Shown piece by piece: positions 21,262 to 41,909 of a DNA stretch of 64,000 nt. The stretch comes from a bacterium (GTDB lineage: Bacteria > Zhuqueibacterota > QNDG01). The notes under the pieces were generated by a model, which worked only from the letters and a program-made list of their open reading frames with translations, did no database searches and was not told where the DNA came from. Within the stretch, counting starts at the first letter, position 1. Every line of letters starts with the position of its first letter. The stretch covers positions 6,757-70,756 of the forward strand of contig JAGGVB010000065.1 of the NCBI GenBank assembly GCA_021158245.1, read 5' to 3'. Both the position numbers and the translations under genes were made by a program.

Positions 21262-22629
21262 TTATTGCTTATTCAATATCTTTTTCTTCTTCAGGTGTTC
21301 TATTTTCATCCTTTTTTCTGCTCTAACCTGAAGCTTTTCAGCCGATAGAATAATTCCTGTTGATAAGCCAAGCTGATACAATATTTGATATGCATGTATA
21401 TCAGGACTGAATGTAAAAACTATTATTATTGCTAAAATACCCCCCAAAACACCAAGAACCGTATTTATTATAAAACTTGAATATAGCTTACGTGTCAAAA
21501 TCCTAATCCCTACAACAAATATGCTGATTAAATACCATATAATAAGGATTGCTCCTATAAGACCCATTTCTGCTGCAATTAAAAGATATGAGTTATGAAC
21601 CATAAATGCAAAAACCTTTGCATAATCATTAGCTTTTTCTGTATTTGTCATGTAATCCCATGAAACAAGTTCATAATGCCCCAAACCAACTCCTAACACC
21701 GGATGTGCTTTAATTATTCGTCCCGCAATTCGAAACTGCGGAAATCGAACTTCATAAGAAGCGTCCCTTTGCGCACCGAACTGACTGATAATTTTATCAC
21801 CATAACGAATTGTAAAAGCCATAAAAAATATCAGGATTACAGGGAAAGCCCATTTAATTTGACTTTTAAACCTCTTGTTAAAAAGACTAATGACAAATAA
21901 TAGCCCCAACGTAATACTAAAAGCAATCCACGGAGCCCTTCCGTATGTAGTAAAAAATGCAATGGTTCCCAGGATAAATGCACTGCCTGCAATAAAATAA
22001 ATTTTTCTTTTCTCCGGTTTGTAATAGAGAAAAAGCCTGAAGGCCACCGGCAGAGTCATAGCAAGATAATTAGCATAAAAGCTAGTCACGAAAAAGGTGC
22101 CCATGGTTCTCCATTTGATTCTGGCAAACGAGCGTTCTCCAAGATACCAAATTCCTATTGCGCCAAACCTCCATTGATATATCCCTATTAAACTCTCAAC
22201 AATAATCCCGATAATCATCGCATAAACTATTATTTTAAAATCTTTTAATGAGTGTACATTATTTACAACTGCAATAATAACAAGATACAGCCTCAAATAT
22301 TTTGATAACTCCGCGAGTACCCACCCATGTTGAAGAGCAAAAAACGATGATACAATTCCTGCAATCAGGAATAAAATCAAGGGTAAAGTCACTGGCATTA
22401 CTGAATATTTGAATTTATATTTTGAAACTATTCCTGTAAGAAGAAGACTGATTACCGGTAAATCCGCAAGCATGAGTCCTGTATAATGATAGAATATCCA
22501 CCCTGAAGAAAATATGTACAGAAACCCTACGAGAAATAGAAAATATTTTCCTCTGTCTCTGACAAATAACGGCACTATACCAAAAAATACAGTTGAAATA
22601 AAAACAAATACTAACTTTGCAGAACTCAT
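21262..22629 (-). CDS. O-antigen ligase/polymerase family membrane protein (Wzy/WaaL-like)
   Basis: 455 aa with about 10-12 TM segments and a large periplasmic loop. Typical neighbour of Wzx in Wzy-dependent loci. No sharper motif. Confidence 0.55.
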   Translation of the reverse strand: MSSAKLVFVFISTVFFGIVPLFVRDRGKYFLFLVGFLYIFSSGWIFYHYTGLMLADLPVISLLLTGIVSKYKFKYSVMPVTLPLILFLIAGIVSSFFALQHGWVLAELSKYLRLYLVIIAVVNNVHSLKDFKIIVYAMIIGIIVESLIGIYQWRFGAIGIWYLGERSFARIKWRTMGTFFVTSFYANYLAMTLPVAFRLFLYYKPEKRKIYFIAGSAFILGTIAFFTTYGRAPWIAFSITLGLLFVISLFNKRFKSQIKWAFPVILIFFMAFTIRYGDKIISQFGAQRDASYEVRFPQFRIAGRIIKAHPVLGVGLGHYELVSWDYMTNTEKANDYAKVFAFMVHNSYLLIAAEMGLIGAILIIWYLISIFVVGIRILTRKLYSSFIINTVLGVLGGILAIIIVFTFSPDIHAYQILYQLGLSTGIILSAEKLQVRAEKRMKIEHLKKKKILNKQ

Positions 22630-23900
22630 ACTTTTATATGCTCTCTTTTAAATCGTATTACTTTATAAACTCCAAACGCCGACAGAACAGCTAAAAACGG
22701 ATAAAGGGGCATCCTATATCTTGGCACTGCAACAGTCAAAGAATGAATAACACCTGAGTATAAAAATAATGTGAAAATAATAATATATTGACGCCACTCT
22801 TTTCTGGAAATCACAACTCCTATGGCAGTAAAAAACAACATCAGATAGTAACTTGCAGTAAGTGTAAAAAATATCATGAAATTTGTAGATCTTGGCCTCC
22901 CATTTGGAATATTTCTATATGCCTTAAAATAATACAAAAAAAACTTTTTAGCTGATAAAGAAAAATAGGTCCATGGATGCTGAATAATTGTCTGCATAGC
23001 CTTACTGAATAGGACATTATCTCTTTGAACAAGATTATCAACACTGCCTGCTTCTTTCACAATCCTTTCCATAGTTTCAGAATAACGAAATTCTCCATTA
23101 TAGGGCAGATAACTGCCAACCCACAATCCCGAACGAGCCCCTCTTGCAATAGGTATAAATTCATGGAACTGTATATAATTTCTTATTATCCATGGGGAAA
23201 CAACTGCATAGCATACTACTGCCATAACAATTGTTCCTTTCAGATTGGTACGCATAGATTTAAAAACATAGAATGTAATAACTATAAAAACAGGAAACAT
23301 GATTAATATATGACGTGTAAGTAAGCCTAATCCAAGTAAAAGTCCGCTCCAAACCCACAGCCATAAACTAAATTTTTGTTTATACCCCTTTATCATAAAA
23401 TAAAAAGCAGTTGTACTAAAAACCATATAAAGAGTTTCTGTATAGAGATAAGAAGGAATGACAATAAGTTCCGGAAAAACTGCCGCAATTCCAGCGCCTA
23501 TCAATCCTGTCTTTTCATTGAAAAGTAATTTCCCTATCTTAAAGACAATTATTATTGTTGAAGCACTTAAAAAGGCTTGTATCAGTTTAACAATTAATAT
23601 GTTTTTCCCAAAAACGGCAAAAATACCTGCAAGAAAAGTAGGATAAAGCGGTGGTGCAAAAGCAGACGGTCTCCGTATGTACTCACAAAAACCTCTTCCC
23701 TGTAAAATATGAACAGCCGTTTTTTGATATCTTTGTGAATCCATTAATGCCCCCTCACCTATATCAGGAAACATTATTATAAACATAACCCTTAATACCA
23801 AGCCTGTAATAACTATCGCTAATAAAAGATGCTTTGTATCCCTAAAATATTTTATACCATTTTTAAGAATATGAATCATTATGTTTTTTAAACCTGCCAT
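22626..23900 (-). CDS. GT-C fold membrane glycosyltransferase (PMT_2/ArnT-like)
   Basis: Polytopic. Acidic motif in the N-terminal loop (DIGEGALMDSQRY). Architecture matches the dolichyl-phosphate-mannose transferase-like family. Confidence 0.6.
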   Translation of the reverse strand: MAGLKNIMIHILKNGIKYFRDTKHLLLAIVITGLVLRVMFIIMFPDIGEGALMDSQRYQKTAVHILQGRGFCEYIRRPSAFAPPLYPTFLAGIFAVFGKNILIVKLIQAFLSASTIIIVFKIGKLLFNEKTGLIGAGIAAVFPELIVIPSYLYTETLYMVFSTTAFYFMIKGYKQKFSLWLWVWSGLLLGLGLLTRHILIMFPVFIVITFYVFKSMRTNLKGTIVMAVVCYAVVSPWIIRNYIQFHEFIPIARGARSGLWVGSYLPYNGEFRYSETMERIVKEAGSVDNLVQRDNVLFSKAMQTIIQHPWTYFSLSAKKFFLYYFKAYRNIPNGRPRSTNFMIFFTLTASYYLMLFFTAIGVVISRKEWRQYIIIFTLFLYSGVIHSLTVAVPRYRMPLYPFLAVLSAFGVYKVIRFKREHIKV

Positions 23901-24024: not shown

Positions 24025-24246
24025 TCACTTAAATATCTCTTCAACTGCCTTTTTACCCTCCCCCTCTATGAACAATCCGGTATACTCAAAATCATTCTTT
24101 ACAAAAGCCGGATGGAATGCATCACTAAAACTATAAGACCCCTTGCAAAAAGGCACATATACATCAGGAGGTTGCATAAAATATTCAAAAAATGAAATTA
24201 CCCCTGATTCAGGAACACCTACAATTAAATAATTCGGCAAAGCCAT
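24025..24246 (-). pseudogene. 73-aa ORF resembling the N-terminal PAPS-binding loop of a sulfotransferase; possible gene remnant
   Basis: LIVGVPESG resembles the sulfotransferase 5'-PSB motif (L-I-V-G-x-P-K-S-G-T). The ORF stops after 73 aa and no continuation appears in other frames of the 124-bp downstream gap. Confidence 0.2.
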
Positions 24247-24254: not shown

Positions 24255-25301
24255 CTATGAAATGATTTCATGTTTATTTGTCTTCAAAATTTCATAAACC
24301 AGAAATACTCCTCCGAGAAGGCTCATTAACACAGTAAGAAATGACTGCATCAATCCCAAAGACAAAGCCTCTGTTCTCATGAAACCAAATTTTGTCAAAA
24401 ATACTACAAAACTAATTTCTCTTATACCCACACCGTTAAAAGATATTGGAACCATAAGAATTATCCTTAACAACGGCATAAAACTTATAATATACAAAAA
24501 AGGCAGATTCAACTCAAGGCTTCTGCTTAAAATCCATAAAGAAAAAAAACCCATTATATGGCCGGTAAAATTTAGAAGCATGAGAAAAAGAAAAAATTTA
24601 AAATCCTGGCCAATAACAATGTGTTTATTTATGAGCCTGAGTAATATTTTCTTGATAAATGTACTACTATTATTATCCTTGTATACAAATTCTGATCTGC
24701 AATACAGTGCAACAAATAAAATGTAACTCAGACAAAGAACCAGAACTAAAATACCTGCAAAAATTACTCTGCTGCCTAAACCAAGCAGGTCTCCAAACAG
24801 TACAAGAGATATTCCTGCTAATATAAACAAAGTGAGAACCATTAGATAACGCGTAATTAATATTGAAAAAGTTGTATTAAATTTACTTTTCGTTATGCTG
24901 TTCAATTTTACACCGCGATAAATATCTCCGCCTATAAAAGTTAATAAATTATTAACAAACAGCGCTTGAAAAGAAAAAAATACTACTTCTCGAAAAGAAA
25001 CCCTCATGTTTAATTTCTTAACTACAAAAAACCAAACTGCAAAATATATCGGCTGTGCGGCAACAAGTACAATAAAGCTTATTATCAACCTTGACAGATC
25101 AATATCTGAAATCAGCTTAATTACTCTGCTAAAATCAGTTTTATGTATTAAATATACAAATATAACAATAGTTATAATAATCTGCAACAGTCGTGTTACA
25201 ATTTTAACAATTTTATTATTCATTCTTAAAGCCATAATTAATTGTTCCTGCCTTTCAAAGATACGACAAAATATTGCTGCAATACAACTCGATTGTCTCA
25301 T
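24255..25301 (-). CDS. flippase-like / lysylphosphatidylglycerol-synthase TM-region family membrane protein
   Basis: 8-TM protein of 348 aa. Its position immediately upstream of a GT2 gene is typical of this family. The true start may be an internal Met. Confidence 0.5.
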   Translation of the reverse strand: MRQSSCIAAIFCRIFERQEQLIMALRMNNKIVKIVTRLLQIIITIVIFVYLIHKTDFSRVIKLISDIDLSRLIISFIVLVAAQPIYFAVWFFVVKKLNMRVSFREVVFFSFQALFVNNLLTFIGGDIYRGVKLNSITKSKFNTTFSILITRYLMVLTLFILAGISLVLFGDLLGLGSRVIFAGILVLVLCLSYILFVALYCRSEFVYKDNNSSTFIKKILLRLINKHIVIGQDFKFFLFLMLLNFTGHIMGFFSLWILSRSLELNLPFLYIISFMPLLRIILMVPISFNGVGIREISFVVFLTKFGFMRTEALSLGLMQSFLTVLMSLLGGVFLVYEILKTNKHEIIS

Positions 25302-25603
25302 TTAAAACATCTATTATCCTGTTTTTAAAATAAGAAGATTCAATTAGACAGGAAGACAGTCACATTCCACTACAGTCATCAATAATACGATTCTACTGAA
25401 CAAATTTCTTTTTCAATCTTACCTTATTATAAAAAGCAAAAACTTTAAAACATTATTTTATCTTTCAGCAAAGCCACCTCCTGAAATATTAAAAAACAAT
25501 AACCCCAAATCAATGACTACAATAGGCGATATCAGGAGGAAATACTGCCCGAATAATTTTTAATCAATGCCAGATACCTGTTACGCTCAAGGGCCTGCAT
25601 CTT

Positions 25604-26323
25604 TCATGGACTTTTATCCTGACGTTCAAAATCGTACTTGTGCCATACAAAAATATCTGCACATAGAACAACTCTCATTCTCATTAGATGTGTACGCCAG
25701 GATAAATCCACATCCTCCATGTATGCAAAATAATCTTCGTCAAACCCGCCTGCTTTTAGATAGAACTCCTTTTTAATCAGCAAACATGCACCGCTTGCAG
25801 CGACAATATCTCTGTCTTCATTATTTTTTTCCGAATCGATTTCTTTGAAATGTGTCATATAGCCGAAGCCGAGATAGTTTATCTCATTGCCAAGAGTATT
25901 TATCAGTTTATCTTTCTTCTTGTTAAAAAGGTATAGTTTGGGCTGAACCAGAGCAATGGAACTGCTGCTGAATCCCGTATGTACCATTTTTTGTATTAAA
26001 AAAACATCATCAATTGCCATATCCGAATTCATCACAATAACAGCGTCACATTTTTGCAAATTAAACTTTTTATACATCTCTTTATTGAATGCTGCAGAGA
26101 ACCCAAGATTCTTTTTGTTCGTAACTGTTTCCACTTCAGGGAATTGCTTTTTGACAAAATCCGAAGAGCCGTCTGACGACGAATTATCAATAAATGTTAC
26201 TGAAAAATTACCATATTGTTGTTTTAGAATATCAGTAAAAAGAACATTAAGACATCCAATGTCATTGTATCCCAAAACAAGCACGGCAACTCTCGGAAGG
26301 AATTCTCTTCTCTTCCCGGTCAT
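25604..26323 (-). CDS. glycosyltransferase family 2
   Basis: N-terminal VAVLVLGYNDIG and DxD-type GT-A fold, 239 aa. Confidence 0.75.
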   Translation of the reverse strand: MTGKRREFLPRVAVLVLGYNDIGCLNVLFTDILKQQYGNFSVTFIDNSSSDGSSDFVKKQFPEVETVTNKKNLGFSAAFNKEMYKKFNLQKCDAVIVMNSDMAIDDVFLIQKMVHTGFSSSSIALVQPKLYLFNKKKDKLINTLGNEINYLGFGYMTHFKEIDSEKNNEDRDIVAASGACLLIKKEFYLKAGGFDEDYFAYMEDVDLSWRTHLMRMRVVLCADIFVWHKYDFERQDKSP

Positions 26324-26354: not shown

Positions 26355-26720
26355 TTAAGAAAGGCTGTCCATTCTGTCATTTAAACTTTTTATTTCTGTA
26401 CCAAGAATAGCAACTTTCTGAGCAAGTGTATTATTCTCCTTTGTCAGCTTTGATATCACAACTGAGAAATGGAGCGCAATTACCATCCCGCAAAAAATTG
26501 CCAGCACAAACAGAGCAGACGGGGGATAATAAATCCCGATCAAATGTGATATCTTTTCAAGGAGCCCTCTCCAGGCTGCCATTATAAAAAGCAAGACAGC
26601 CGAAGCGATCCATAGAAGAGAATACTGCTCAAGTAATCTGTTTTTACGAATAAGCTGAAATATTACAAGGAGTAGTATAACTCCCATCAGCATAGTAAGT
26701 ATTTGAATACGAATCTGCAT
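26355..26720 (-). CDS. DUF2304-family small membrane protein
   Basis: 121 aa with 3 TM segments and a C-terminal coiled-coil tail. Its position between two GT2 genes and next to a GT-C matches the conserved GT2-DUF2304-GT-C module. Confidence 0.6.
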   Translation of the reverse strand: MQIRIQILTMLMGVILLLVIFQLIRKNRLLEQYSLLWIASAVLLFIMAAWRGLLEKISHLIGIYYPPSALFVLAIFCGMVIALHFSVVISKLTKENNTLAQKVAILGTEIKSLNDRMDSLS

Positions 26721-26735: not shown

Positions 26736-27449
26736 TTAAATTTGCCTTTTTTTAAAAAGATCAACGAATATTGCAAGAAAAACCTTTATCATATAATAAG
26801 CCGCTTTAAATGACGATATTGAAGATTTGCCATGCTCTCTCTCCCTCATCTCAACCGGTACTTCAACCAGGCCGAAACCGTTTTTTTTAAGGATTATTAC
26901 AGATTCAGGTTCAGGATAATCACTTGGATAATTTTCCGAAAGGAATTCAAGGGCTTTACGGTTGTAAGCTCTGAATCCGGAAGTATTGTCTGTAATTTTC
27001 TGTCCGATCGCAAGAGAATTTACAAACTTGAACATGCCTATGCCGATCTGCCTTGCAGCTGAACTTTTAAAACCTCTCTGGTTTAAAAATCTGGATCCTA
27101 TTGCTACATCCGCTTCGGAACCCTCCAGCGCATCCAATAACTTATGTATTTCCGATGCAATATGCTGGCCGTCCCCGTCCACCTGAACTGCAATGTCATA
27201 ACCGAATTCAACTGCATACTTAAATCCGGTCTGCACAGCTCCTCCTATACCAAGATTAAACGGCAGAGTTATCACTTCTGCTCCGCTTTTTCTTGCAGAG
27301 TCGGAAGTTCTGTCCGTAGACCCGTCATCAACAACAACAATATCTATTGGTACGGAAATATCTTGTATCTCCCGAATAACATTTGAAATTGCTCCCTGCT
27401 CATTAAACGCAGGAACAATTGCGAGATATTTTTTGTGCATCGAGTTCAC
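26736..27449 (-). CDS. GT2 polyprenyl-phosphate glycosyltransferase (DPM1/GtrB-like)
   Basis: LAIVPAFNEQG...VVVDDGSTDRT, 237 aa. Resembles dolichyl-phosphate beta-glucosyl/mannosyl transferases. Confidence 0.75.
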   Translation of the reverse strand: MNSMHKKYLAIVPAFNEQGAISNVIREIQDISVPIDIVVVDDGSTDRTSDSARKSGAEVITLPFNLGIGGAVQTGFKYAVEFGYDIAVQVDGDGQHIASEIHKLLDALEGSEADVAIGSRFLNQRGFKSSAARQIGIGMFKFVNSLAIGQKITDNTSGFRAYNRKALEFLSENYPSDYPEPESVIILKKNGFGLVEVPVEMREREHGKSSISSFKAAYYMIKVFLAIFVDLFKKRQI

Positions 27450-29177
27450 TTATTCTGCCTCTTTAATGCTCTTTTTGTACAATATCTTATACACAACTGC
27501 ACGAACACCGTCCGGGTCTGTCCTGTCATAGACCAGCCGAATATCTTCCGGCATCATATCCGGACTCAGAAATGGATATGCATTTTTAAACCATACCACA
27601 TATCTGGAACTGAACACAACGTACTCACACTGTTTGTATCGTGCATAATCTAAAATTTTTGATACGGAATCATAAGAAAATGAGGCTCCTTTTTTCATAT
27701 CATACTGCCCTGCATAAAAATCTGCCGCTTTGTTTATACTTAAAAGAATCGGCGGATGATCAGTATGATTTTTGAGCCAGATCCCGGCTTCCTTAATTTC
27801 AACAGGCTCTCCCCATAATCCCGGCATATACTTTTTTATGGCAAAAATCCTGCCTGACTCAAGAATAAAACAGAAAAGAATTAAAATACTGATAACAGTC
27901 GTTTTACTAATAACAGCCTTCTTTTTGCTAATAATTGAATCTTTTTCAGATACATCTTCTATTGCATCTTCCGTCCAGTTAATTAAATAAATTACACCTC
28001 TTGATATCCATATAAAAAATATGGGAAAGAGGGGTATAAGATACCTGGGATTAACATGGAAAAGAGGTATAACAACAAACCAGAAAAACACTATATTTAA
28101 AGACAGGTAAAAAATAAGGTGCCACTTTTTCCTGGAATAAAATTGAGCAAGGAATCCTGCAGTTGCAAAAATCAGCAATATCACTGTAACTACCCTTGGA
28201 ACGGCCTCCTTTAAAACTTTATTTAAATTTTTTGCGTACTTTTCAGCATATTCTCTGATACTTATTGATACAAATCTATTCCGCCCTTCCTGAAATTTGG
28301 TTAAATCCTGAATATTACCATAAAGATATGCCATATCAGCAGGAAGGTGCTTATTGTCAGAAGTAACGTGGTAAAAAGGATCTTTAATATTCTTCGGATT
28401 GAATTCAACAGCTGCTTCAAGCTGCTGATTAACCATGCCTTTTGTGCTGAAAGTCCACACGCCTGTTACTTTTTTTAGATAGATTAGATACGGCGAAGAT
28501 ATAATTAAAAAGCCAAACACTGTTATAGAAATCCACACTACAAAGGTAGTTTTTTTATCCTTCGTTAACCGGAATAATGCTGACAGGAACAAAAATCCAA
28601 AAGCCACTATTAAAAAGCCGACACCTTCCGGCCTGACAAGATAACTCAAAGCCCATAATACCCCTGCAAAGAAAAAGAAAATTCTCTTTTTTTGCAAAAA
28701 TGCATTATAAAAAAGCAATACTCCTGCAAGCCCGAGAAGAGTATAAAGCGGTTCCGTACCAACATCTGTTGACTCGTATGCGATAGGCGGATAGAAAAGT
28801 ATGAACAGCGCGCTGATTCTTGCAGTATTTCTGTCAAAAATCTTTTTTGTAAGAGTATAAATAATTATAGAAACCCCTGCACTTGCAAGAATATTTACAG
28901 CCCGGCCTGCTGATTCAAGACTTTTTAGAACAAGGCTGAAAATTGCTGTAACAGCAGGGTACAGAGGAGGCCAGTAAGGATGAAGAAGCCCGTGGATACC
29001 ATTCTGTAAAAAACTTCCTGCAAGACGCAGGTTGTGTGCTTCATCAAAGCTCACTGCAAATTGGCGGGTTACAATAAGAAAAATACGTGCTATTATGCCG
29101 ACAACAACTGCAGCGGCAAGAAACCAATCCCATTTCGGATAATTTGCAGCTTGTTCTGACTTTTTACTTTGTCTCAT
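27450..29177 (-). CDS. GT-C fold membrane glycosyltransferase (ArnT/PMT-like)
   Basis: 575 aa polytopic protein with SFDEAHN and HPYWPPLY motifs in the N-terminal loops. Large C-terminal periplasmic domain. Confidence 0.65.
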   Translation of the reverse strand: MRQSKKSEQAANYPKWDWFLAAAVVVGIIARIFLIVTRQFAVSFDEAHNLRLAGSFLQNGIHGLLHPYWPPLYPAVTAIFSLVLKSLESAGRAVNILASAGVSIIIYTLTKKIFDRNTARISALFILFYPPIAYESTDVGTEPLYTLLGLAGVLLFYNAFLQKKRIFFFFAGVLWALSYLVRPEGVGFLIVAFGFLFLSALFRLTKDKKTTFVVWISITVFGFLIISSPYLIYLKKVTGVWTFSTKGMVNQQLEAAVEFNPKNIKDPFYHVTSDNKHLPADMAYLYGNIQDLTKFQEGRNRFVSISIREYAEKYAKNLNKVLKEAVPRVVTVILLIFATAGFLAQFYSRKKWHLIFYLSLNIVFFWFVVIPLFHVNPRYLIPLFPIFFIWISRGVIYLINWTEDAIEDVSEKDSIISKKKAVISKTTVISILILFCFILESGRIFAIKKYMPGLWGEPVEIKEAGIWLKNHTDHPPILLSINKAADFYAGQYDMKKGASFSYDSVSKILDYARYKQCEYVVFSSRYVVWFKNAYPFLSPDMMPEDIRLVYDRTDPDGVRAVVYKILYKKSIKEAE

Positions 29178-30716: not shown

Positions 30717-32033
30717 TCACAATTTCTTCATAAACTCTCTTACACTCGCTGTCACAAAATTCATTTTCTCAGAAGTAATACCCGGATAAATACCCATAAA
30801 AAAGCTGTCGCGTAAAATTTTATCAGCATTTGATAAATTTCCGATCGTTCTAAAATACAGGCCCAGATAGGCCGGATGACGTATAATATTTCCTGCAAAA
30901 AAGAGGCGCGTTTCAATATTCCTCTGTTCAAGAAATGAAAGGAAATCCCTGCGTGTAAAAACAGCATTATTCCGAATTGTAAGCGGGAATGCAAACCATG
31001 CAGGTTCTGCTTTCGGTAAAGATTCAGGAAGAATAAAGAACTCTTCATAATCTTTAAAGGTGTCATAAAGCTGTTTAAAATTTGCATTCCTTTTTGCAAT
31101 AAATTCAGGAACTCTCTTCAGCTGCACTCTTCCCATTGCAGCTTGGAACTCCATCGGTTTTAAGTTATATCCTATATTTGTATAAACATAGCGGATATCA
31201 TATCCTTCAGGAAGAATACCGCTTTTTGTTTTAAAAGGGCATGGTTTATCCGGATTTTTTACAACCTCGCAAATAGGACATGCACACGCCCTCCCCCAAT
31301 CACGAATTGACCTGCAGATTAAATTTAACCCGTTATCATTAACTGCAATCGCGCCGCCTTCTCCCATAGTCATATGATGTGCGACATAAAATGAAAATGT
31401 TGCCATGTCTCCGAAAGTACCAACCAGCTTACCGTCATATTTTGACCCAAGCGCATCACAAGTATCTTCAATGACTATTAAATCATGTTGCTTTGCTAAT
31501 GCCATTATTTCTGACATAGGATTAGGGTTGCCAAGCTGATGCAGAATGACAATGGCTTTTGTTTTAGGAGAAATTGCACGCTCAATCTGTTCAATGTCAG
31601 GATTGTAAGTACCAAGGTCAACATCAACCAGAACCGGAGTAAATCCGTTTTGAACAATAGGATTAAAAGTAGTAGGGAAAGTAACTGCCTGTGTAATTAT
31701 CTCATCACCAGGTTCAATTTTTCTCCTGAATTCATTGGATTTAAGAGCAGACAAAGCAATAAGATTTGCAGACGATCCGGAATTTGTTACCAGCGTATTT
31801 CCTGTACCAAGAAAGGATGCAAATTCCTGTTCAAATTTGCGCGCCTGGTTGCCAACACCGAACCAGCCGTCAAGTATTGAACCAACCATTGCTTTGATTT
31901 CATCTGCTCCGTATACGGGCCCGGCATATTGCACTTTGTTTTTTACAGGAGTAAAGCTCTTCATTCTCTCTTTTTCTTCAATAAAATCAGTTAAGAGCCC
32001 ATTAATCTGATCTCTTATATCATCAATTTTCAT
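30717..32033 (-). CDS. DegT/DnrJ/EryC1/StrS family PLP/PMP enzyme, RfbH(E1)-like sugar 3-dehydrase/aminotransferase
   Basis: 438 aa, the same length class as RfbH. Has a Cys-rich insert (CACPIC...C). Confidence 0.75.
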   Translation of the reverse strand: MKIDDIRDQINGLLTDFIEEKERMKSFTPVKNKVQYAGPVYGADEIKAMVGSILDGWFGVGNQARKFEQEFASFLGTGNTLVTNSGSSANLIALSALKSNEFRRKIEPGDEIITQAVTFPTTFNPIVQNGFTPVLVDVDLGTYNPDIEQIERAISPKTKAIVILHQLGNPNPMSEIMALAKQHDLIVIEDTCDALGSKYDGKLVGTFGDMATFSFYVAHHMTMGEGGAIAVNDNGLNLICRSIRDWGRACACPICEVVKNPDKPCPFKTKSGILPEGYDIRYVYTNIGYNLKPMEFQAAMGRVQLKRVPEFIAKRNANFKQLYDTFKDYEEFFILPESLPKAEPAWFAFPLTIRNNAVFTRRDFLSFLEQRNIETRLFFAGNIIRHPAYLGLYFRTIGNLSNADKILRDSFFMGIYPGITSEKMNFVTASVREFMKKL

Positions 32034-35088: not shown

Positions 35089-35264
35089 TCTTCTTTACTC
35101 CTGCCCTCTTTCTTATGCCAGCTTTAAGTCAATTATTGTATTTTTTCCAGTATTTATTTCTTTTCCTGATACTTTATACAGCAGGGCCCGGAAATCTTGC
35201 AAGCCGGACATTTATTCCATATCCGGTAATTAACAAGACTCTCCGCCAGATTAAAAGAAACGAC

Positions 35265-36965
35265 TTATCTCTTTTCAGTATTTCCGCCTTTGTCTGCTGC
35301 CTCTCCCCACGAGTAGATTAAAAGGCTGTAATTTTTTGTTTCAATCGGTTTTTCAAAATGATTTTTAACATATTCCCGGATTTCACCGCTTGTATAGGCA
35401 TCTGTATTAAAAAGATATTTTTCAAGAACAATCCAGCCACTTTTATGAGTACTAATAATTTTTTTCAAATCTTCAAGATTTTCAATACATGGAACTCCTT
35501 CGTATATATCCACCCATCTGCCGTTCTTGTTTGCGTCTTTGAATCTCATTGATTGCCGAAGCAACCCGAAATTCAAAGTATAATCAGTAGCAGGGCAGTA
35601 AAACGAGCTTATTTGCGGAAGATTTGAAATAACAATATCTCCTTTCTGCATATTTTCACGCAGATACTTTCCAGCCGCCTTCCATTCACCGGGAGTTACT
35701 GCCATATTTGTTTTTCCGTCTTCTATCTTAGGAATATTGAGGCTGATTCTCATCCACGGTGAAACAAGAAAAACAACTGCCACTGAGAGAGAAATCAAAT
35801 ATCTAAGATAGGGTGCTAACTTCTTAACCCTCATTTTTATTTCATTTTTCACGGAATTCTCAGACTCAACAGAGGCTGTTTTCACAAACCATACAAGAGA
35901 ATATGCTGCAAGAAATATGAAGAAGGGATAAACATTAAAGAGATACATAGGGACTCTGTGAGTAAAAACAAATGACAGCATGAACAATTGGAATGTAAAC
36001 AGTATGAAAGAAAATATGCCTCTCTTATTACCCTTGAATATTACAAGTACTGCACCTGCAAAAAATAACGCACCCATTGGAAATCTGTAAACTGACATAA
36101 TGAAATCAAAAAGAAGCAGTCTGTACTTTGCGCCCACATCTCCTTTTACCCATTCAGGTGTATATGCCAGATAATACTTCAGGTTTGCCCTTATCCATGG
36201 TATAAAGATAACTGCAGCTGCAGTTAAAATTATAGCAGCGGCAGATATTAACATATATTTATTAAAAAATCTTTCTCTTCCATTTAAAAAAATAAATTTG
36301 ATAACGGCCATAACCAAAACGTACACAAAAAGCCCTAAAATAAAAATTGCAAATATTCTGTGAACTTTATAAAATGTATACGCACCGAGCAGCAATGTTG
36401 CTGCTATCCAGATAAGGGAAAAATCCCATTTTTTCTCAATGGAGGGCAGTATCAGAAATCTCTTTTTGCCTTTTTCAGGCTCAAACCCGAGAATAAAAGA
36501 GTACGCAACGGCCAATGTTAAAAATTGCAGCATAGTATACATCTTTGCTGTTCTTGACCACCCTACTGCAAAATGCGAAAATGCAAGAAGCAGAGCAGCT
36601 ACAAGAGCCGTCTTTCGATCAAACATCCTTGCACCGATAACATAGATTAACCACACACCGAGTATTCCGAAAATTGCGGAAGGAAGCCTTGTTGCAACTT
36701 CTCCCGGTCCGATTATTTTTGAAAATAACGCTGCGCAATAAGTGTAAACAGGTGCCCGGCCGTATAAAAACCCTGAAGGCATATTCAAGCCTTCGCCGGC
36801 ATTAAAAGATTGTGCTGCATAATACACATTGATTTCATCAACCCAAAAGCTCTGCCTTCCCAAATGAGATAATCTTAAAAATGATGCAGCAGCCAAAATT
36901 ACAGCAAGAATAATCCAGTATCTGAACTTGTCTTTATTTATTTTTTCGCCTGATTGATAATCCAT
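35265..36965 (-). CDS. GT-C fold membrane glycosyltransferase (ArnT/PMT-like)
   Basis: 566 aa with FWVDEINVYY and GRAPVYTY motifs in N-terminal loops. C-terminal soluble domain. Confidence 0.65.
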   Translation of the reverse strand: MDYQSGEKINKDKFRYWIILAVILAAASFLRLSHLGRQSFWVDEINVYYAAQSFNAGEGLNMPSGFLYGRAPVYTYCAALFSKIIGPGEVATRLPSAIFGILGVWLIYVIGARMFDRKTALVAALLLAFSHFAVGWSRTAKMYTMLQFLTLAVAYSFILGFEPEKGKKRFLILPSIEKKWDFSLIWIAATLLLGAYTFYKVHRIFAIFILGLFVYVLVMAVIKFIFLNGRERFFNKYMLISAAAIILTAAAVIFIPWIRANLKYYLAYTPEWVKGDVGAKYRLLLFDFIMSVYRFPMGALFFAGAVLVIFKGNKRGIFSFILFTFQLFMLSFVFTHRVPMYLFNVYPFFIFLAAYSLVWFVKTASVESENSVKNEIKMRVKKLAPYLRYLISLSVAVVFLVSPWMRISLNIPKIEDGKTNMAVTPGEWKAAGKYLRENMQKGDIVISNLPQISSFYCPATDYTLNFGLLRQSMRFKDANKNGRWVDIYEGVPCIENLEDLKKIISTHKSGWIVLEKYLFNTDAYTSGEIREYVKNHFEKPIETKNYSLLIYSWGEAADKGGNTEKR

Positions 36966-36966: not shown

Positions 36967-37926
36967 TCATAATCTCCCCTTTTCTGTTGAAAGGCCGGAC
37001 CTGTAAGGCCCGCGGATAAATCCCCAGGTATACGCTATTAATCCTAAAAATATCAAGGGATAGTGAAAAATAAAGCTTAAAAACAGTTTATAATCTGACT
37101 GAACTAACCGTTTGCTTATTATCAAAGTTCTGTAAACAGGAATAAACACAATTAAAGGAGGATATTTAAGAAGAAAATATCCATGCCGTTTTGTCCTTCT
37201 TCGCGTCTCATTTGCACCTTCTCCCAAAGCAACCTGATTTTTAATAAAATGATTAAACCCTGTTCTGTTTCTGTGAGTTATTGATGCATCCGGTAAAAAA
37301 TAAATATTGTATCCGGATGTCACAATATTATCACAAAGTATTGTATCTTCACCCTTCATAAAATCCGGGAAAAATCCGACACTCTCAAGTAAATCTTTAC
37401 TTACACATAAATTACATGAAGGCAGAGCTCCCACGTCTCCCATTTTTGCCATTGGATTCATCTCATTAAATTCAAGCAGATATTCCGCAGTACCCACATA
37501 ACTGTCAGGAGTGCCATTTGCAACACCCCCTCCTGCTGCTTTGTATCCTGCCTGCAGTTTTTTCCAAAGTAATTTCAGCCAGTCAGGGCTTGCTATGCAG
37601 TCACTATCAATAAAGAACACAAAACTGCCGCGAGCCAAACGCGCGCCCTCTGATCTGGCAAGGCCAGGCAGAGTCCTTCTGTTGAGATGCAGAACTTTTA
37701 CCTCTGTGAAACACTCTTTCACATCCTGTGTAATATCTTCAGGTGAACTGTCAACTACTATAACTTCATAGGGCATATCTATTGTCTGATTCATAACAGA
37801 TTCAAGACAAAGAAATAGATCCCTTCCTGATTTATAAGAGGGAATAACAATGGAAATTTCCGGTGCTACACTATTATTATTTTTTATCTGCATTTCTCTA
37901 TTTTCCTGCCAATGTTTCAATTGCAT
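36967..37926 (-). CDS. glycosyltransferase family 2
   Basis: ISIVIPSYKSGRDL, DxD (FIDSDC). Confidence 0.75.
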   Translation of the reverse strand: MQLKHWQENREMQIKNNNSVAPEISIVIPSYKSGRDLFLCLESVMNQTIDMPYEVIVVDSSPEDITQDVKECFTEVKVLHLNRRTLPGLARSEGARLARGSFVFFIDSDCIASPDWLKLLWKKLQAGYKAAGGGVANGTPDSYVGTAEYLLEFNEMNPMAKMGDVGALPSCNLCVSKDLLESVGFFPDFMKGEDTILCDNIVTSGYNIYFLPDASITHRNRTGFNHFIKNQVALGEGANETRRRTKRHGYFLLKYPPLIVFIPVYRTLIISKRLVQSDYKLFLSFIFHYPLIFLGLIAYTWGFIRGPYRSGLSTEKGRL

Positions 37927-39028
37927 CTATCATTCCGTTCCAATCTCTGTTTTTTCTATCCAAAGCATAATTTTTAAGAAATTCAGAATCTTTTTTTATT
38001 TTGCCTGCCATGAACTCTCTCATTGATTCTGCAAGAGCATCAACATTATCGGGTTCAATTACAACGCCATGTGTTTCAGATATAACATTCTCGGCAAGGC
38101 CGCCAACATCAGTTACTATTACAGGTCTTCCCATTGTAAATGCAAGCTGAGGTACTCCGCTCTGAGTTGCATCTCTGTAAGGAAGAACAACAACATCAGC
38201 AGCTGAAAAAAACAGTTCGAATTCATCCTCGGATACGTATCTGTCAACAATAGTTATTTGTTTATTCAGGCCCTTATCTTTGATGAGAGTATTGTAAAAA
38301 TCTCTTTTACCCCAAAACTCTCCGGCAATTAAAAGATGTGCGGATTCATTATCAATCAGGGAAAGAGCATCTATTAATAAATCCAACCCTTTGTAATAAC
38401 GCACAAATCCAAAAAAGAGAAAAACAATCTTATCAGAAGGAATACCAAGAGATTGCCTTGCCTCGTAATTATTAATCCCTTTGATTACCGGCTCAGGATG
38501 AGGTGCAATCGGGAGGGCCTCAACATCTTTTCCCGGACAGATTTCCATTAATTTCTTTTTATCCGATTCGCTGTGCACTGTAAATCCCTGAGAGGATCTC
38601 AGAGCCCATTTCGTAATTGTTTCCCATATAACCCCGTTCTCATGAGGGAGAACATTATGGCATACATAAACAGTTTTTACTCCTATACGCTTTCTTACAA
38701 TATTTGATATAAATTTCCAGCAAAACGCAAAAAACGGGACCCACCATATAAAAACAATAATATCCGGTTTATATGATACTATACTCTCGGCAGTATATGC
38801 CCACGTCGCAGGATTTAATGAATCTATTATATAACTACACTCTTTAAATTTCCTGATTTTACCTGGTTCTCTGTCTGTGCTGCCCGGAAATAAAAATGAC
38901 GGATACTGCCTTTTAAAAGAAATAAAATAAACCTCGTGCCTCTTTTTAAGAAATTTCCACAAGAGAGTTGTGTGCTGAGCAATGCCGCCTCTAAAAGGGA
39001 ATGTCGGGCCTATAAGAACAATCCGCAT
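37898..39028 (-). CDS. glycosyltransferase family 4
   Basis: GT4 motif in the C-terminal half. Start set to the internal ATG at 39026-39028 (MRIVLIGP), which removes the overlap with the upstream gene ending at 39033. Confidence 0.75.
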   Translation of the reverse strand: MRIVLIGPTFPFRGGIAQHTTLLWKFLKKRHEVYFISFKRQYPSFLFPGSTDREPGKIRKFKECSYIIDSLNPATWAYTAESIVSYKPDIIVFIWWVPFFAFCWKFISNIVRKRIGVKTVYVCHNVLPHENGVIWETITKWALRSSQGFTVHSESDKKKLMEICPGKDVEALPIAPHPEPVIKGINNYEARQSLGIPSDKIVFLFFGFVRYYKGLDLLIDALSLIDNESAHLLIAGEFWGKRDFYNTLIKDKGLNKQITIVDRYVSEDEFELFFSAADVVVLPYRDATQSGVPQLAFTMGRPVIVTDVGGLAENVISETHGVVIEPDNVDALAESMREFMAGKIKKDSEFLKNYALDRKNRDWNGMIDAIETLAGK

Positions 39029-39032
39029 TTTT

Positions 39033-39980
39033 TTATTTATCCCCTTTAATATCACTCTTTTTCAAACGATACAAAACTTCCTCTATCAGTCTTCTATTGG
39101 CTGAAATAATGTCAGCAAGTAATCCTATCATACCTACCTGAAATCCCACAATCATAAAAACCGCAGAAAGAATCAATGACTGTATATGGCCCTCACCCTG
39201 ATGAGTAAGGAAAAAATAAAGGAATCTCATAGATACAAGAAAACCTACACCAAAAATAAATCCGCCAATATATAAAAAAGTCTTTAAAGGCTCATAAAGA
39301 GCATAAATTCTGGCAATTGTTGCACCTGACTGATTTATATATGCAAAAATACTTTTAAAAAGTCTTGAAGGCCTTGTTGGTTTATTTGTCCTTATTGATA
39401 CATGGGCTATCGGGATACCCTTTTTACCAGCCTGAATTATTGTGTCAAGTGTATATGTAAATTGTGATATCACATTCATCCTTAATGCTGCTTCCCTGCT
39501 GAATGCTCTGAACCCGCTTGTTACATCAGGAACAGTTGTATTTGAAATATGCCGAACAACCCAGCTTCCCAGTTTTTGAAGCAGCTTTTTGATAAATGAA
39601 AAGTGCTCTACCTGCATTACTTCCCTGTCTCCGACCACCATATCAGCACTTCCTGCAAGTATCGGGTCAATTAATTTTTGAATATCCTCAGCTCTGTATT
39701 GGTTGTCTCCATCAGTGTTTACAATAATATCTGCTCCGAATCTGAGAGAAGAATCAAGGCCTGCCGAAAAGCTGACTGCAAGCCCTCTGTTGCTTGTAAG
39801 ACGTACAATATGATCTACTCCCAGCTCTCTTGCCTTTTCCACAGTCCTGTCTGTACTTCCGTCATCAATTACCAGAAGTTCAACAATATCAATGCCATCA
39901 AATTTTCGGGGAATTGCCTTTATTGTTGCAGGCAAAGTCCTCTCTTCATTATAACAGGGTATCTGAATTATAAGCTTCAC
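39033..39980 (-). CDS. GT2 polyprenyl-phosphate glycosyltransferase (DPM1/GtrB-like) with C-terminal TM helices; GTG start
   Basis: IQIPCYNEE...VIDDGSTDRT...DGDNQ, 315 aa. Start codon GTG at 39978-39980, preceded by a G8 tract. Confidence 0.75.
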   Translation of the reverse strand: MKLIIQIPCYNEERTLPATIKAIPRKFDGIDIVELLVIDDGSTDRTVEKARELGVDHIVRLTSNRGLAVSFSAGLDSSLRFGADIIVNTDGDNQYRAEDIQKLIDPILAGSADMVVGDREVMQVEHFSFIKKLLQKLGSWVVRHISNTTVPDVTSGFRAFSREAALRMNVISQFTYTLDTIIQAGKKGIPIAHVSIRTNKPTRPSRLFKSIFAYINQSGATIARIYALYEPLKTFLYIGGFIFGVGFLVSMRFLYFFLTHQGEGHIQSLILSAVFMIVGFQVGMIGLLADIISANRRLIEEVLYRLKKSDIKGDK

Positions 39981-39990: not shown

Positions 39991-39991
39991 G

Positions 39992-40942
39992 CTAGTTAAT
40001 TATTTCTTCTATATTATATTCAGTAACATCGCCTGCGTGAGTAAAAATAATCATCTCACCAAGCAGGCCTATTGATATCATCTGAATACCGATTACAAGT
40101 AAAAGAGCACCGAGAATTAAAAGCGGCCTTCCTGCAATAGGCCCCATGCCAAGAATTCTGTAAATGAACAGATAAACTTCAATTGCAAGACCTGCTGCAC
40201 TGAAAAATGAACCCACAAACCCCAGAAAATGAATTGGTTTTTTCGAATAACGGGTAAGAAAAATTACCGTTATTATATCAAGCATACGCTGGACATACTC
40301 CCTTGGATAACGGGAATTACGGAAACTCCCGGGCAGCTGAGCTATTTTCTCTTCAGAAACCTTATACCCCTGCCCTGCAGCAAGAACAGGAATAAAATTG
40401 TACAAATCTCCGTAAAATGATATTTTATTAAGCACTTCTCTTTTTGTAACAAGAATACCGCTGTTGATATCGTGCAGCCGCCTCTTTAAAAACCAGCTTG
40501 CAAGAAGATTAAAAACTTTTGAGACACTTCTGTTAAGAACGGAATCTCTGCGGGGTGAACGCCATCCTGCAACAAGATCACTTTCCCCGTCAAGCTTTTC
40601 AAGAAATGCCGGAATGCCGTAAGGATCAATATTGACTCTTCCCGAAATATAAACGATAATATCTCCCATAGAGTACTTAAGGCCGGCATCAAGGCATGCA
40701 GCTTCACCGAAAGTAGAACGCATACGAACAATATGAATTTTATCATCATTTTTCATCAGCATGTGCAGCTTTTCAAAAGTGCTGTCATTAGACGCATCAT
40801 CTATAAAAATATACTCTATCGATTTGCTGACACTCTTCACAGCATCTGCCAAAGAAGTGTAAAAATCTTCAATATTTTTCTCTGCATTAAAAATTGAAAC
40901 TATTACCGATACCTCTGCATGGGAACTGTCACTCTTTCTCAT
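39992..40942 (-). CDS. GT2 polyprenyl-phosphate glycosyltransferase (ArnC-like)
   Basis: VSVIVSIFNAEKNI...FIDDASNDST...AGWR and 2 C-terminal TM helices. Paralogous to the next gene. Confidence 0.75.
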   Translation of the reverse strand: MRKSDSSHAEVSVIVSIFNAEKNIEDFYTSLADAVKSVSKSIEYIFIDDASNDSTFEKLHMLMKNDDKIHIVRMRSTFGEAACLDAGLKYSMGDIIVYISGRVNIDPYGIPAFLEKLDGESDLVAGWRSPRRDSVLNRSVSKVFNLLASWFLKRRLHDINSGILVTKREVLNKISFYGDLYNFIPVLAAGQGYKVSEEKIAQLPGSFRNSRYPREYVQRMLDIITVIFLTRYSKKPIHFLGFVGSFFSAAGLAIEVYLFIYRILGMGPIAGRPLLILGALLLVIGIQMISIGLLGEMIIFTHAGDVTEYNIEEIIN

Positions 40943-41909
40943 ACCAGTCCTCGTATTTATCAGTTAAAAGTGGAGAGAGAGTAAGGCCTCTCCTATCCCC
41001 TGTTTTCACAATGAGGCTTGCAACAAGCCCTAAAAAGAAAAACTGCAGTCCTGTTACAAAAAACAGGAATACAAGAGTAATAACAATATTAAGCTCAGCA
41101 GCATCAAGAGTTTTTCCTGCAAAAAGAAACAGAAACCATAAAAGTGCAAGGATCCCAAGAGCAATAACTCCCGCACCTAATTTGCCGAAAAATCTTAAAG
41201 GAGCACGAAGATATTTAAGAAAAAGATTAAGAGAAGACAAATCCATAAGTACACGGAATGTCCTCGTAAGATTGTACTTTGATTTTCCGAACTTTCTGGC
41301 ATGATGGTTTACAGGTATTTCCGCAATCCTTGCTCCTTCAATTTTTGTCAGTGCCGGAAGGAATCTGTGCATCTCCCCATAAAGCCTTATCCCCTGTATT
41401 GCTTCCCTTCTGTATGCCTTAAGTGCACATCCCGTATCATGAAGATCAACATGGGTAACAGAGCAGATAAGCCTGTTTGCAATAAAAGAAGGTACTTTTC
41501 TTATAAATAGCTTATCCTGTCTGTTTTTACGCCACCCGCTCACAACATCATAGCCCTCTTCCAATTTTGAAAGAAGTTTCGGTATATCTGCCGGATCATT
41601 CTGCAGGTCTCCATCCATAGTTACAAGAACATCCCCTGTAGATATTGAGAATCCTGCTGCCATTGCAGCAGACTGGCCAAAATTCTTACGTAAAAAAATA
41701 GCTCTGAAATCCGGATCTGCAGCGGCAATCTCCTTAAGTTTATCTCGTGTTCCGTCTGTACTGCCGTCATCAATAAAAATTATCTCTGTCAGCAAATCAA
41801 GATTGTCCACAGCTTTCTTAATTGCGGAATAAAGCAAAGGTACATTCTGTTCTTCATTAAAAACAGGTACTACAACTGAAAGGCCTGTAATGTTATTTGT
41901 TAAATTCAT
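40929..41909 (-). CDS. GT2 polyprenyl-phosphate glycosyltransferase (ArnC-like)
   Basis: LSVVVPVFNEEQNV...FIDDGSTDGT...SGWR and C-terminal TM helices. Confidence 0.75.
   Translation of the reverse strand: MNLTNNITGLSVVVPVFNEEQNVPLLYSAIKKAVDNLDLLTEIIFIDDGSTDGTRDKLKEIAAADPDFRAIFLRKNFGQSAAMAAGFSISTGDVLVTMDGDLQNDPADIPKLLSKLEEGYDVVSGWRKNRQDKLFIRKVPSFIANRLICSVTHVDLHDTGCALKAYRREAIQGIRLYGEMHRFLPALTKIEGARIAEIPVNHHARKFGKSKYNLTRTFRVLMDLSSLNLFLKYLRAPLRFFGKLGAGVIALGILALLWFLFLFAGKTLDAAELNIVITLVFLFFVTGLQFFFLGLVASLIVKTGDRRGLTLSPLLTDKYEDWYEKE

Follow-up and report, generated by a model that had tools for sequence, protein, structure and literature searches.

A stretch of 64,000 nucleotides from a bacterium of the lineage Zhuqueibacterota (contig JAGGVB010000065.1 of assembly GCA_021158245.1; hereafter the window) carries a Wzx/Wzy-dependent, Wza/Wzc-exported polysaccharide locus of about 54 kb (positions 5305-59874, all on the minus strand). 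We consider it probable that this one locus holds four modules for extracytoplasmic glycosylation. In each of them an enzyme at the cytoplasmic face would charge polyprenyl phosphate with a sugar, a flippase would carry the lipid-linked sugar over the inner membrane, and a glycosyltransferase of the GT-C class would move the sugar onto the glycan at the periplasmic face. Module 1 would use a Wzx flippase, a GT-C, a GT2 without transmembrane (TM) segment and its DUF2304 activator. Module 2 would comprise a trio of GT2 proteins (named a, b and c), a GT4, a further GT2 and a GT-C, flanked by an AsnB-like amidotransferase and an SDR-GFO fusion oxidoreductase, with a and b acting together. Module 3 would pair a UPF0104 flippase-like protein with a short GT-C. 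Module 4 would convert phosphoribosyl pyrophosphate into polyprenyl-P-ribose and then polyprenyl-P-arabinofuranose through UbiA, HAD, DprE1 and DprE2 proteins, after which a GtrA-like protein would flip the product and a GT-C transfer it. None of the modules is of a new kind, and although it is unusual to find them gathered in one locus, the concept is not new. The element that goes beyond known systems is a conserved pair of a canonical and a DxD-less ArnC-like protein within module 2. Among the main sources of diverse surface glycans, variable phage receptors and resistance to antibiotics is extracytoplasmic glycosylation from polyprenyl-phosphate (Pren-P) sugars, as in the Gtr, Arn and Gac systems and in mycobacterial arabinan; here four mechanistically distinct versions would stand side by side, presumably on one polymer, in a candidate phylum without cultured representative.

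The initial annotation of this DNA had proposed four ArnT/PMT-like GT-C transferases. Judged from sequence and structural models, all four candidates are true GT-C glycosyltransferases, named below by their first coordinate:

5895-7334, minus strand: GT-C of the pentofuranose module, candidate arabinofuranosyltransferase (Pfam PMT_2 E 8.7e-14; about 10 TM segments; WLDE after the first)
22626-23900, minus strand: short GT-C without C-terminal periplasmic domain (PMT_2 E 1.6e-16)
27450-29177, minus strand: GT-C with a predicted GacL/WpsJ/Rv3779-like role (PMT_2 E 7.7e-13; FDE motif)
35265-36965, minus strand: GT-C of a conserved cassette, with an alpha/beta C-terminal periplasmic domain (PMT_2 E 1.6e-16)

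The PMT_2 scores of the four lie at 49-61 bits (E 8e-13 to 1.6e-16), well over the gathering score of 26.1, and each protein has 8-10 hydrophobic segments, TM segments being counted throughout by Kyte-Doolittle scan. Right after the first TM segment, three of them carry a W/F-x-D-E motif, which reads WLDE in GT-C 5895, FDE in 27450 and WVDE in 35265 and is invariant among orthologs; for 35265, W-x-D-E is invariant across 29 homologs. The weakest candidate, GT-C 22626, has D54-x3-Y58 aligned with the DEGRY loop of ArnT, and a profile of its 25-sequence family reached ArnT (5EZM) at E 2.7e-8. Single-sequence PDB searches with GT-Cs 35265 and 22626 gave nothing meaningful, and shallow ortholog profiles (A4 and A5) found no match in the PDB; deeper profiles, hhalign and structure prediction were needed. 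Structures were compared for GT-Cs 22626 and 35265, and GT-Cs 5895 and 27450 were tied in by profile-profile comparison. Both AF2 models are helical bundles (predicted local distance difference test, pLDDT, 89.8 for 22626 and 87.8 for 35265). The top 35 or so Foldseek matches of GT-C 22626 in the PDB are all GT-C enzymes; for GT-C 35265 the top match is ArnT (5F15, E 3.7e-10) and the next 40 or so are again all GT-C enzymes. Structural neighbours of the two include ArnT, STT3/PglB/AglB, PMT, ALG and Aft/Emb. GT-C 27450 aligned with the ArnT-reaching profile (hhalign 99.7%, E 1e-25), and GT-C 5895 with the profile of the 35265 family (98.3%, E 1.7e-14). Examined for the possibility that they are membrane proteins of another kind lacking the acidic loop, the candidates were found to keep that loop and to have the GT-C fold.

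Four GT2 proteins were studied as possible suppliers of the lipid-linked sugars:

40929-41909, minus strand: trio member a, canonical ArnC-like Pren-P sugar synthase (ArnC structures E 1.8e-55 over residues 8-300; MDGDLQNDP)
39992-40942, minus strand: trio member b, ArnC/GtrB-like, without D-x-D-x-Q (full-length ArnC match, E 2.7e-30)
39033-39980, minus strand: trio member c, AglJ/DPMS-like, with canonical DGD and two C-terminal TM segments (NCBIfam AglJ E 8e-35)
26736-27449, minus strand: TM-less GT2, candidate polyprenyl-P-N-acetylhexosamine (HexNAc) synthase of the PpgS/GacI/WpsA type (NCBIfam PpgS E 4e-32; DGD motif)

By sequence, all four belong to the ArnC/GtrB/DPMS family of Pren-P sugar synthases, and none is processive. 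Their best named or solved relatives are ArnC, GtrB, DPMS, PpgS and AglJ. The GT-A domain is matched over its full length in a (E 1.8e-55), b (2.7e-30) and c (1e-16 to DPMS and 1.5e-12 to ArnC, the latter also a full-length match), and that of GT2 26736 matches DPMS (5MLZ) at E 9e-13. No [QR]xxRW motif was found in any of the four, which have at most two TM segments, and with full-length homologs in the ArnC/GtrB/DPMS family the processive-synthase identity is ruled out. The C-terminal TM anchors that had been ascribed to all four are borne out for the trio, each member of which has two C-terminal TM segments forming a hairpin, with the alignment to ArnC extending through it; GT2 26736 (237 aa) has no TM segment, and a DUF2304 partner instead. 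Likewise, the count of four polyprenyl-P-sugar synthases holds for family membership and drops to three for canonical enzymes, as D-x-D-x-Q reads DGDLQ in a, DGDNQ in c and DGDGQ in 26736, whereas b, with SGRVN, is without the catalytic base and both metal ligands. The GT2 gene at 25604 was rejected as a fifth Pren-P synthase, being decayed and not GtrB-like. Also rejected was the identity of a as a true ArnC making undecaprenyl phosphate (Und-P)-linked Ara4FN, with 206.8 bits against an equivalog cutoff of 529 and no ArnA or ArnD in the window; no formyltransferase or deformylase appeared among the Pfam results for the window.

As the initial annotation had noted, the locus concentrates lipid-carrier-dependent extracytoplasmic machinery of both Gtr-like and mycobacterial-like character. 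GT-C family profiles matched 0 open reading frames (ORFs) in 1.31 Mb from 80 unrelated genomic loci, against 4 in the 64-kb window, and the Pren-P-GT2 profile matched 2 in the same 1.31 Mb, against 4 strong matches in the window; this baseline is crude, the profiles being derived from the window's own families. We retrieved related loci (numbered with L) through homologs of GT-C 22626, GT2 39992 and GT-C 35265 and their contigs. The closest relative is represented by L085 and L090, both on one 115-kb JGI contig. Against it, the ratio of nonsynonymous to synonymous substitution rates (dN/dS) is 0.05-0.18 for all remaining GT-C and GT2 genes, and these module genes are under purifying selection.

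In module 1, GT-C 27450 and GT2 26736 are joined by two further genes:

26355-26720, minus strand: small membrane protein with DUF2304, of the GacJ/WpsB/Rv3632 type (PF10066 E 4e-26; 3 TM segments)
29164-30633, minus strand: Wzx-family flippase in a GacK/WpsG-like position (Polysacc_synt E 1.8e-29; 12 TM segments)

The Wzx, GT-C, TM-less GT2 and DUF2304 genes are contiguous, and their order is kept in L085, L086 and L088. The DUF2304 gene had been overlooked before; the Wzx gene is the only intact one in the window, and its ortholog in L085, at the corresponding position, is 79% identical. Based on this gene content, module 1 appears to be a complete four-component set of the GacIJKL or PpgS-Rv3632-Rv3779 type. 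The GacI/GacJ/GacK/GacL and WpsA/B/G/J systems have been characterised experimentally, and the DUF2304 proteins GacJ, WpsB and Rv3632 bind their TM-less synthases, GacI, WpsA and PpgS, and stimulate them (10.1101/180810; PMC10821137). The same four gene types as in GacI/J/K/L of Streptococcus pyogenes, lactococcal WpsA/B/G/J and mycobacterial PpgS/Rv3632/Rv3779 are contiguous here, and with the Gac and Wps systems module 1 shares a TM-less DPMS-like GT2 with DxD, a three-TM DUF2304 partner, a Wzx and a GT-C. It differs from all of these in its setting, a diderm host and a Wza/Wzc-type locus rather than a rhamnan cell-wall polysaccharide or arabinogalactan. The donor is probably a polyprenyl-P-HexNAc; GT2 26736 scores 111 bits against the NCBIfam model of PpgS, a GalNAc-P-polyprenol synthase, under its equivalog cutoff of 370. 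Gac systems add one sugar and Wps systems prime an oligosaccharide, and module 1 could do either.

Module 4 corresponds to the UbiA/DprE branch of the initial annotation, whose presence was upheld by UbiA, FAD_binding_4, SDR and HAD matches within 5305-10662. Next to GT-C 5895 lie:

5305-5892, minus strand: HAD-family phosphatase, candidate polyprenyl-P-ribose-5-P phosphatase (Pfam HAD E 1e-32; adjoins the GT-C and DprE genes)
7358-8194, minus strand: DprE2-like SDR reductase (adh_short; DprE2 model E 6e-46, 157 bits, below the cutoff of 250)
8091-9389, minus strand: DprE1-like FAD oxidase (FAD_binding_4; DprE1 E 1.6e-118, 397 bits, below the cutoff of 500)
9386-9787, minus strand: GtrA-family small membrane protein, candidate Pren-P-pentose flippase (PF04138 GtrA_DPMS_TM E 1.3e-7, 32.2 bits, above 26.1)
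9784-10662, minus strand: UbiA-family polyprenyl-phosphate phosphoribosyltransferase, DPPR-synthase-like (UbiA E 5e-21)

The UbiA-family protein matches the NCBIfam decaprenyl-phosphate phosphoribosyltransferase at E 3e-67 and 227 bits, marginally under the cutoff of 234, and the SDR reductase scores 345.8 bits against PRK07102, above the cutoff of 267. With the GtrA-like gene, overlooked earlier, the branch appears to have every part of a polyprenyl-P-arabinofuranose pathway. These parts lie in one block, as in the three-component systems of Citrobacter youngae O1/O2 (Kelly et al. 2024, PMC11127046) and in the mycobacterial decaprenylphosphoryl-arabinose (DPA) pathway, for which Rv3806c, Rv3807c, DprE1/E2, Rv3789 and Aft/Emb served as the comparison set. 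The phosphatase of module 4 is a separate HAD protein, neither fused as in ORF15 nor of the Rv3807c type, its flippase candidate is GtrA-like and not MATE, its GT-C matches PMT_2, and its host is an uncultured KSB1-like bacterium. HAD-type phosphoribose phosphatases have been described in pentofuranose systems (PMC11127046), and the place of the HAD gene beside the GT-C and DprE genes agrees with such a role.

In module 2 the trio and GT-C 35265 are accompanied by:

36967-37926, minus strand: GT2 with one C-terminal TM segment, directly upstream of the cassette GT-C (Pfam GT2)
37898-39055, minus strand: GT4 between the trio and the GT2/GT-C pair (Glycos_transf_1 E 9e-25; ortholog in L088 and L090)
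41912-44011, minus strand: fusion of SDR and GFO/IDH/MocA oxidoreductases, for sugar-nucleotide modification (Pfam; C-terminal half NCBIfam UDP-GlcNAc 3-dehydrogenase-like)
44008-45843, minus strand: AsnB-like amidotransferase, a recurrent neighbour of the trio (Asn_synthase E 7e-67)

The full arrangement is kept in the closest relative and in L088. Farther away, the trio comes back with its order unchanged in L092-L095 and in L091, a locus of a KSB1 genome (a 59-67%, b 59-62% and c 26-71% identical; the c orthologs of L088 and L093-L095 reach 66-78%). Its frequent companions in relatives are the AsnB and SDR-GFO genes, GT2 36967, GT-C 35265 and a Wzx right after the GT-C. Orthologs of GT2 36967 stand at the same position in L088, L093 and L094 (58-70% identical), those of the SDR-GFO fusion occur in L088, L090, L092 and L093, and those of the AsnB-like gene lie upstream of the trio in L088 and L091-L095 (41-61% identical). 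By synteny, the trio and GT-C 35265 form a conserved cassette, present in L088, L090, L093 and L094 and partly in L091, L092 and L095. Members a and c share the GT-A domain, DxDxQ and C-terminal TM hairpin with ArnC/GtrB of Enterobacteria, and the GT-Cs of the window share the fold and the DE-type loop with ArnT. The cassette is unlike arn systems in that a is not an ArnC ortholog (207 against 529 bits) and the locus is without ArnA and ArnD, and unlike the gtr arrangement in that the only GtrA-like gene of the window sits in the pentofuranose branch. In L091-L095, the gene immediately upstream of the a-b-c trio encodes a small membrane hydrolase-like protein of the YdjM family (PF04307), often accompanied by a UPF0104 gene.

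Module 3 and its surroundings show that this copy of the locus is partly eroded, a GT2, a sulfotransferase and a second Wzx being remnants:

24255-25301, minus strand: UPF0104 / LPG_synthase_TM protein (MprF-flippase-like), candidate flippase of a lipid-linked sugar (PF03706 E 1e-25; 8 TM segments)
25282-26323 (ORF 25604-26323), minus strand: decayed GT2 (79% identity to residues 1-258 of the L085 protein; Trp-to-stop)
24037-24246 (73-aa ORF 24025-24246), minus strand: sulfotransferase remnant, about 70 N-terminal aa (tblastn 63% to L085 residues 1-70)
35177-35278, minus strand: second Wzx remnant of 34 residues in the 176-bp gap after GT-C 35265 (tblastn 62% to residues 4-37 of Wzx2 of L090, E 3.5e-5)

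The UPF0104 gene, also missed in the initial annotation, is kept beside GT-C 22626 in L085 and L086, and its product scores 38.1 bits against the flippase-like model TIGR00374, under the cutoff of 43.2. A neighbourhood of UPF0104, AglD-like GT2 and PMT/STT3-like GT-C genes, with a predicted flippase role for UPF0104, has been described in archaea (Makarova et al. 2015, PMC5898192). Like the archaeal set and bacterial GpgF (PMC12713373), module 3 has a PF03706 gene between a GT2 and a GT-C; unlike the archaeal set, it has a bacterial host and a GT2 partner that varies among relatives and is decayed in the window. In all UPF0104 systems compared, module 3 included, the flippase role is putative, with a Pren-P-sugar or a glycolipid as possible substrate. 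Intact versions of the decayed GT2, with one C-terminal TM segment, occur in L085 (362 aa) and L088 (367 aa); in the window the C-terminal third of the protein, which holds this segment, is left as fragments in two other frames with stops, and the lowest GC content of the window (0.32-0.33) falls around the pseudogene. The sulfotransferase is intact in L085 (303 aa), and the remainder of the gene is missing here; the polymer of the relative may thus be sulfated and that of the window probably is not. The second Wzx remnant, 53% identical to the copy of L088, corresponds to a gene that is intact after the GT-C in L088, L090, L093 and L094, and the UPF0104 gene that precedes the trio in L090 has been lost. 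Module 2 of the window may therefore be impaired, or dependent on shared flippases. Given the three remnants, gene counts overstate the number of functional decorations.

The initial annotation had counted up to five distinct single-sugar decorations. With four GT-Cs, the more likely number of credible donors, as far as sequence can tell, is about four: polyprenyl-P-arabinofuranose from module 4, a polyprenyl-P-HexNAc from the GacI-like synthase with DUF2304, one donor from a (with b) and one from c. The pairing of donor and GT-C looks clear by adjacency for GT-Cs 5895 and 27450 and by the conserved cassette for 35265. No donor is assignable to GT-C 22626, because the neighbouring GT2 is decayed, not GtrB-like and replaced in L086. 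The term "single-sugar" was only an assumption, as starters of the GacI/GacJ type also prime Und-P-oligosaccharides (PMC10821137) and a Wzx adjoins module 1.

Several observations weigh against four working modules that add sugars in this way. The decayed GT2 of module 3 has its best match in a rhamnosyltransferase family and is not GtrB-like, and a non-orthologous GT2 takes its place in L086. Dedicated flippases are short in the window, the Wzx after GT-C 35265 being only a remnant of about 100 bp, and neither the UPF0104 nor the YdjM gene that relatives carry upstream of the trio is present. Finally, the extra cytoplasmic glycosyltransferases between trio and GT-C, together with the Wzx genes, fit the transfer of an oligosaccharide equally well. 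At least one module could thus build a second oligosaccharide or polymer on polyprenyl monophosphate, to be flipped by Wzx and attached en bloc by the GT-C, as by lactococcal WpsA/B-WpsG-WpsJ for the polysaccharide pellicle. There, WpsA/WpsB prime an Und-P-linked repeat unit, cytoplasmic glycosyltransferases extend it, Wzx flips it and the GT-C attaches it (PMC10821137). The contiguity of Wzx with GT-C 27450, GT2 and DUF2304 agrees with such a route, as do the GT4 and GT2 between the trio and GT-C 35265 and the two Wzx genes of relatives, one after each large GT-C. GT-C 35265 points both ways, since its NCBIfam match is an STT3-type oligosaccharyltransferase and its fold neighbours include AglB, STT3 and ArnT, but the top one is ArnT, a monosaccharide transferase. 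Against a second polymer stand the standard Und-PP initiating phosphoglycosyltransferase and single Wzy-like gene of the locus, for which the remaining Wzx may be the repeat-unit flippase; no second polymerase or chain-length regulator was found in the locus. On balance we regard en bloc transfer as rather unlikely, if a serious competitor, and keep the four modules adding sugars from Pren-P donors as the preferred reading.

The pair formed by a and b within module 2 was analysed against the ArnC structure. In the D-A-D-L-Q motif of ArnC, as seen by cryo-electron microscopy, the first Asp is the proposed catalytic base, metal binding falls to the second Asp and the Gln, undecaprenyl phosphate is bound by R128, and the enzyme is a tetramer (10.1101/2025.01.29.634835). 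Member b reads S-G-R-V-N at this place, and in 120 of 120 homologs of its clade the first Asp is replaced by S/T/G/N and the second by Arg; D46, D47, D52, R127 and D158 are invariant in 118-120 of the 120 sequences. An exhaustive search of 1.8 billion cluster representatives returned 648 relatives of b at E<=1e-30. Among the best 150 of these 648, DxD is missing in about 45, which mostly have (P/A/S)-x-(Y/F)-x-Q instead. All 45 DxD-less representatives (45/45) keep D158 and the Arg equivalent to R128 of ArnC, their nucleotide-binding positions decay, and the replacements in deeper lineages vary (ASFFQ, PPYLQ and others). The two deeper DxD-less lineages examined each lie directly downstream of a canonical a-like GT2, with a GT-C coming next in L097. 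The order a then b was found in 9 of 9 contexts, in which b never occurred without an adjacent canonical a, and b is under purifying selection (dN/dS 0.10).

We infer that b has become a partner of a, without catalysis of its own but with lipid-phosphate binding retained. As a tentative model, to which we give somewhat less than even credence, a and b would form a hetero-oligomeric Pren-P glycosyltransferase in which catalytic a is obligatorily paired with b; within it, and just as tentatively, b would have lost nucleotide-sugar and metal binding and kept the polyprenyl-phosphate site. Member b could then be a lipid-presenting, product-handling or regulatory partner. The invariant nucleotide-binding aspartates of the window's own b clade speak against this model, as a non-canonical activity might persist. 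In that case b would be a working enzyme with a metal-independent mechanism, the invariant Arg replacing the metal, and the trio would give three donors. Such an activity would account for the near-complete invariance of D46, D47, D52, R127 and D158, the Arg in 120 of 120 sequences and the low dN/dS; it has to contend with the loss of the proposed catalytic base and both metal ligands, with deeper lineages that vary the replacements and let the nucleotide-binding positions decay as the Pren-P-binding Arg and D158 stay, and with the constant presence of canonical a in the nine contexts. We consider an active b unlikely and favour its role as partner of a.

ArnC and GtrB are treated as homotetramers. 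To our knowledge, arn and gtr operons, as generally described, do not carry a DxD-less paralog beside the synthase, and no description of DxD-less or heteromeric GtrB/ArnC-type enzymes was found in the literature searched. If the heteromer is real, family annotation will change, DxD-less homologs now being automatically named "glycosyltransferase"; the pair would represent a widespread undescribed architecture, a counterpart of GacI/GacJ or DPM1/DPM3 made from a pseudo-enzyme paralog, and would open to direct test how polyprenyl phosphate is delivered to these enzymes or taken away from them. Organism labels of b-family homologs read only "[bacterium]" or KSB1, and for this reason we make no claim of spread across phyla. 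A separate protein, P0213 (633 aa), consists of two canonical (DADLQ) ArnC/GtrB-like units fused head to tail, consistent with oligomeric action.

The GT-Cs would act on the polysaccharide of the locus. They might serve other acceptors, in protein O-glycosylation (PMT-like), on pilin (TfpW-like) or on lipid A or the lipopolysaccharide core (ArnT-like). PMT_2 covers ArnT and protein mannosyltransferases alike; TfpW puts D-arabinofuranose from a DPA-like pathway on pilins of Pseudomonas aeruginosa (10.1101/2020.04.19.049825; PMC11127046); and in the KSB1 locus L091 the trio lies near a gene of the heptosyltransferase family (Glyco_transf_9). Nevertheless, all four GT-Cs lie within one co-oriented polysaccharide locus with tight or overlapping junctions, their positions relative to Wzy, Wzx and cytoplasmic glycosyltransferases are kept in relatives, and no pilin, ArnA/ArnD or lipid A genes occur in the window, which makes other acceptors improbable.

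As to origin, the tandem genes at 39992-41909 had been described as clear paralogs born of local duplication and diversification. Their homology stands: the genes of a and b lie side by side with a 14-base overlap, and the similarity extends along their whole length (30% identity, E 7e-43). A duplication in this locus is very improbable, because each has closer relatives elsewhere (a 59-67% and b 59-62% in distant loci, the order always being the same), a scores above b against enterobacterial ArnC, and the pair also exists in lineages whose a and b are only 34-48% identical to the window copies. With 30% mutual identity against hundreds of b homologs elsewhere at 57-66%, and with the order conserved in all nine contexts, a and b are rather an old adjacent pair.

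Nearly the whole window is a single co-oriented gene array on the minus strand, with a steadily negative GC skew. Every ORF named in the initial annotation was found at its coordinates on that strand, in agreement with independent JGI gene calls, and the same contig was independently assembled in JGI, ENA and Logan data. The locus is flanked by housekeeping genes, BipA (3381-5186) on one side and glycogen synthase and FtsW on the other. This BipA (MCD6116151.1) shares 91% identity with that of a metagenome-assembled genome of candidate division KSB1, and its best counterparts in species-representative genomes reach only about 72%, so that the host is most likely an uncultured KSB1 bacterium. 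It also encodes about 7 GT4, several GT2, two AsnB-like amidotransferases, many sugar-nucleotide enzymes, methyltransferases and a carbamoyltransferase, besides the framework of the host pathway:

21262-22629, minus strand: Wzy_C-domain polymerase or ligase (PF04932 E 4e-18; 11 TM segments)
54245-55702, minus strand: initiating phosphoglycosyltransferase (Bac_transf E 3.5e-69)
55706-56662, minus strand: epimerase, a framework gene of the host pathway
56675-58990, minus strand: Wzc (GNVR/Wzz/AAA_31)
59026-59874, minus strand: Wza (Poly_export and SLBB)

The Wzy_C gene, already recognised as encoding a Wzy/ligase-like protein, adjoins GT-C 22626 in L085 and L086 too. Rfam and tRNA scans found no RNA genes in the window. 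Among the BipA-anchored loci of 80 genomes none carried this locus, synteny being absent at that level; a scan of GTDB species genomes with GT-C 35265 gave no relative, and a metagenome scan with the same protein led to two loci only.

A STAS-domain protein (59887-60594) directly upstream of Wza, at the head of the locus, may be regulatory (anti-sigma-antagonist-like). Between two GT4 genes lies a 615-aa protein (16288-18135) that has a single hydrophobic segment, at its N-terminus, and matches no Pfam model at E<=0.1; it is kept at this place in L085 (84% identity) and L086 (52%). A 641-aa protein (13214-15139), which combines a hydrophobic segment at its N-terminus with Golvesin_C (E 1.7e-16) at its C-terminus, is likewise kept in L085 and L086. 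The DegT-family gene at 30717-32033 passes the equivalog score of RfbH, a dehydrase of the 3,6-dideoxyhexose pathway (548 against 423 bits); L085 and L088 do not have it at this place, and no further genes of a CDP-sugar pathway were identified around it. A 185-aa ORF with a TTG start (44747-45304, plus strand), antisense within the AsnB-like gene, is most likely spurious, as it is not in the independent gene calls. Finally, a 588-aa protein (45858-47624) with one TM segment fuses a hexapeptide-repeat acyltransferase to a GT2 domain; L088 and L090 keep this fusion, and in L095 a UPF0104 domain takes the place of the GT2 domain beside the hexapeptide part.

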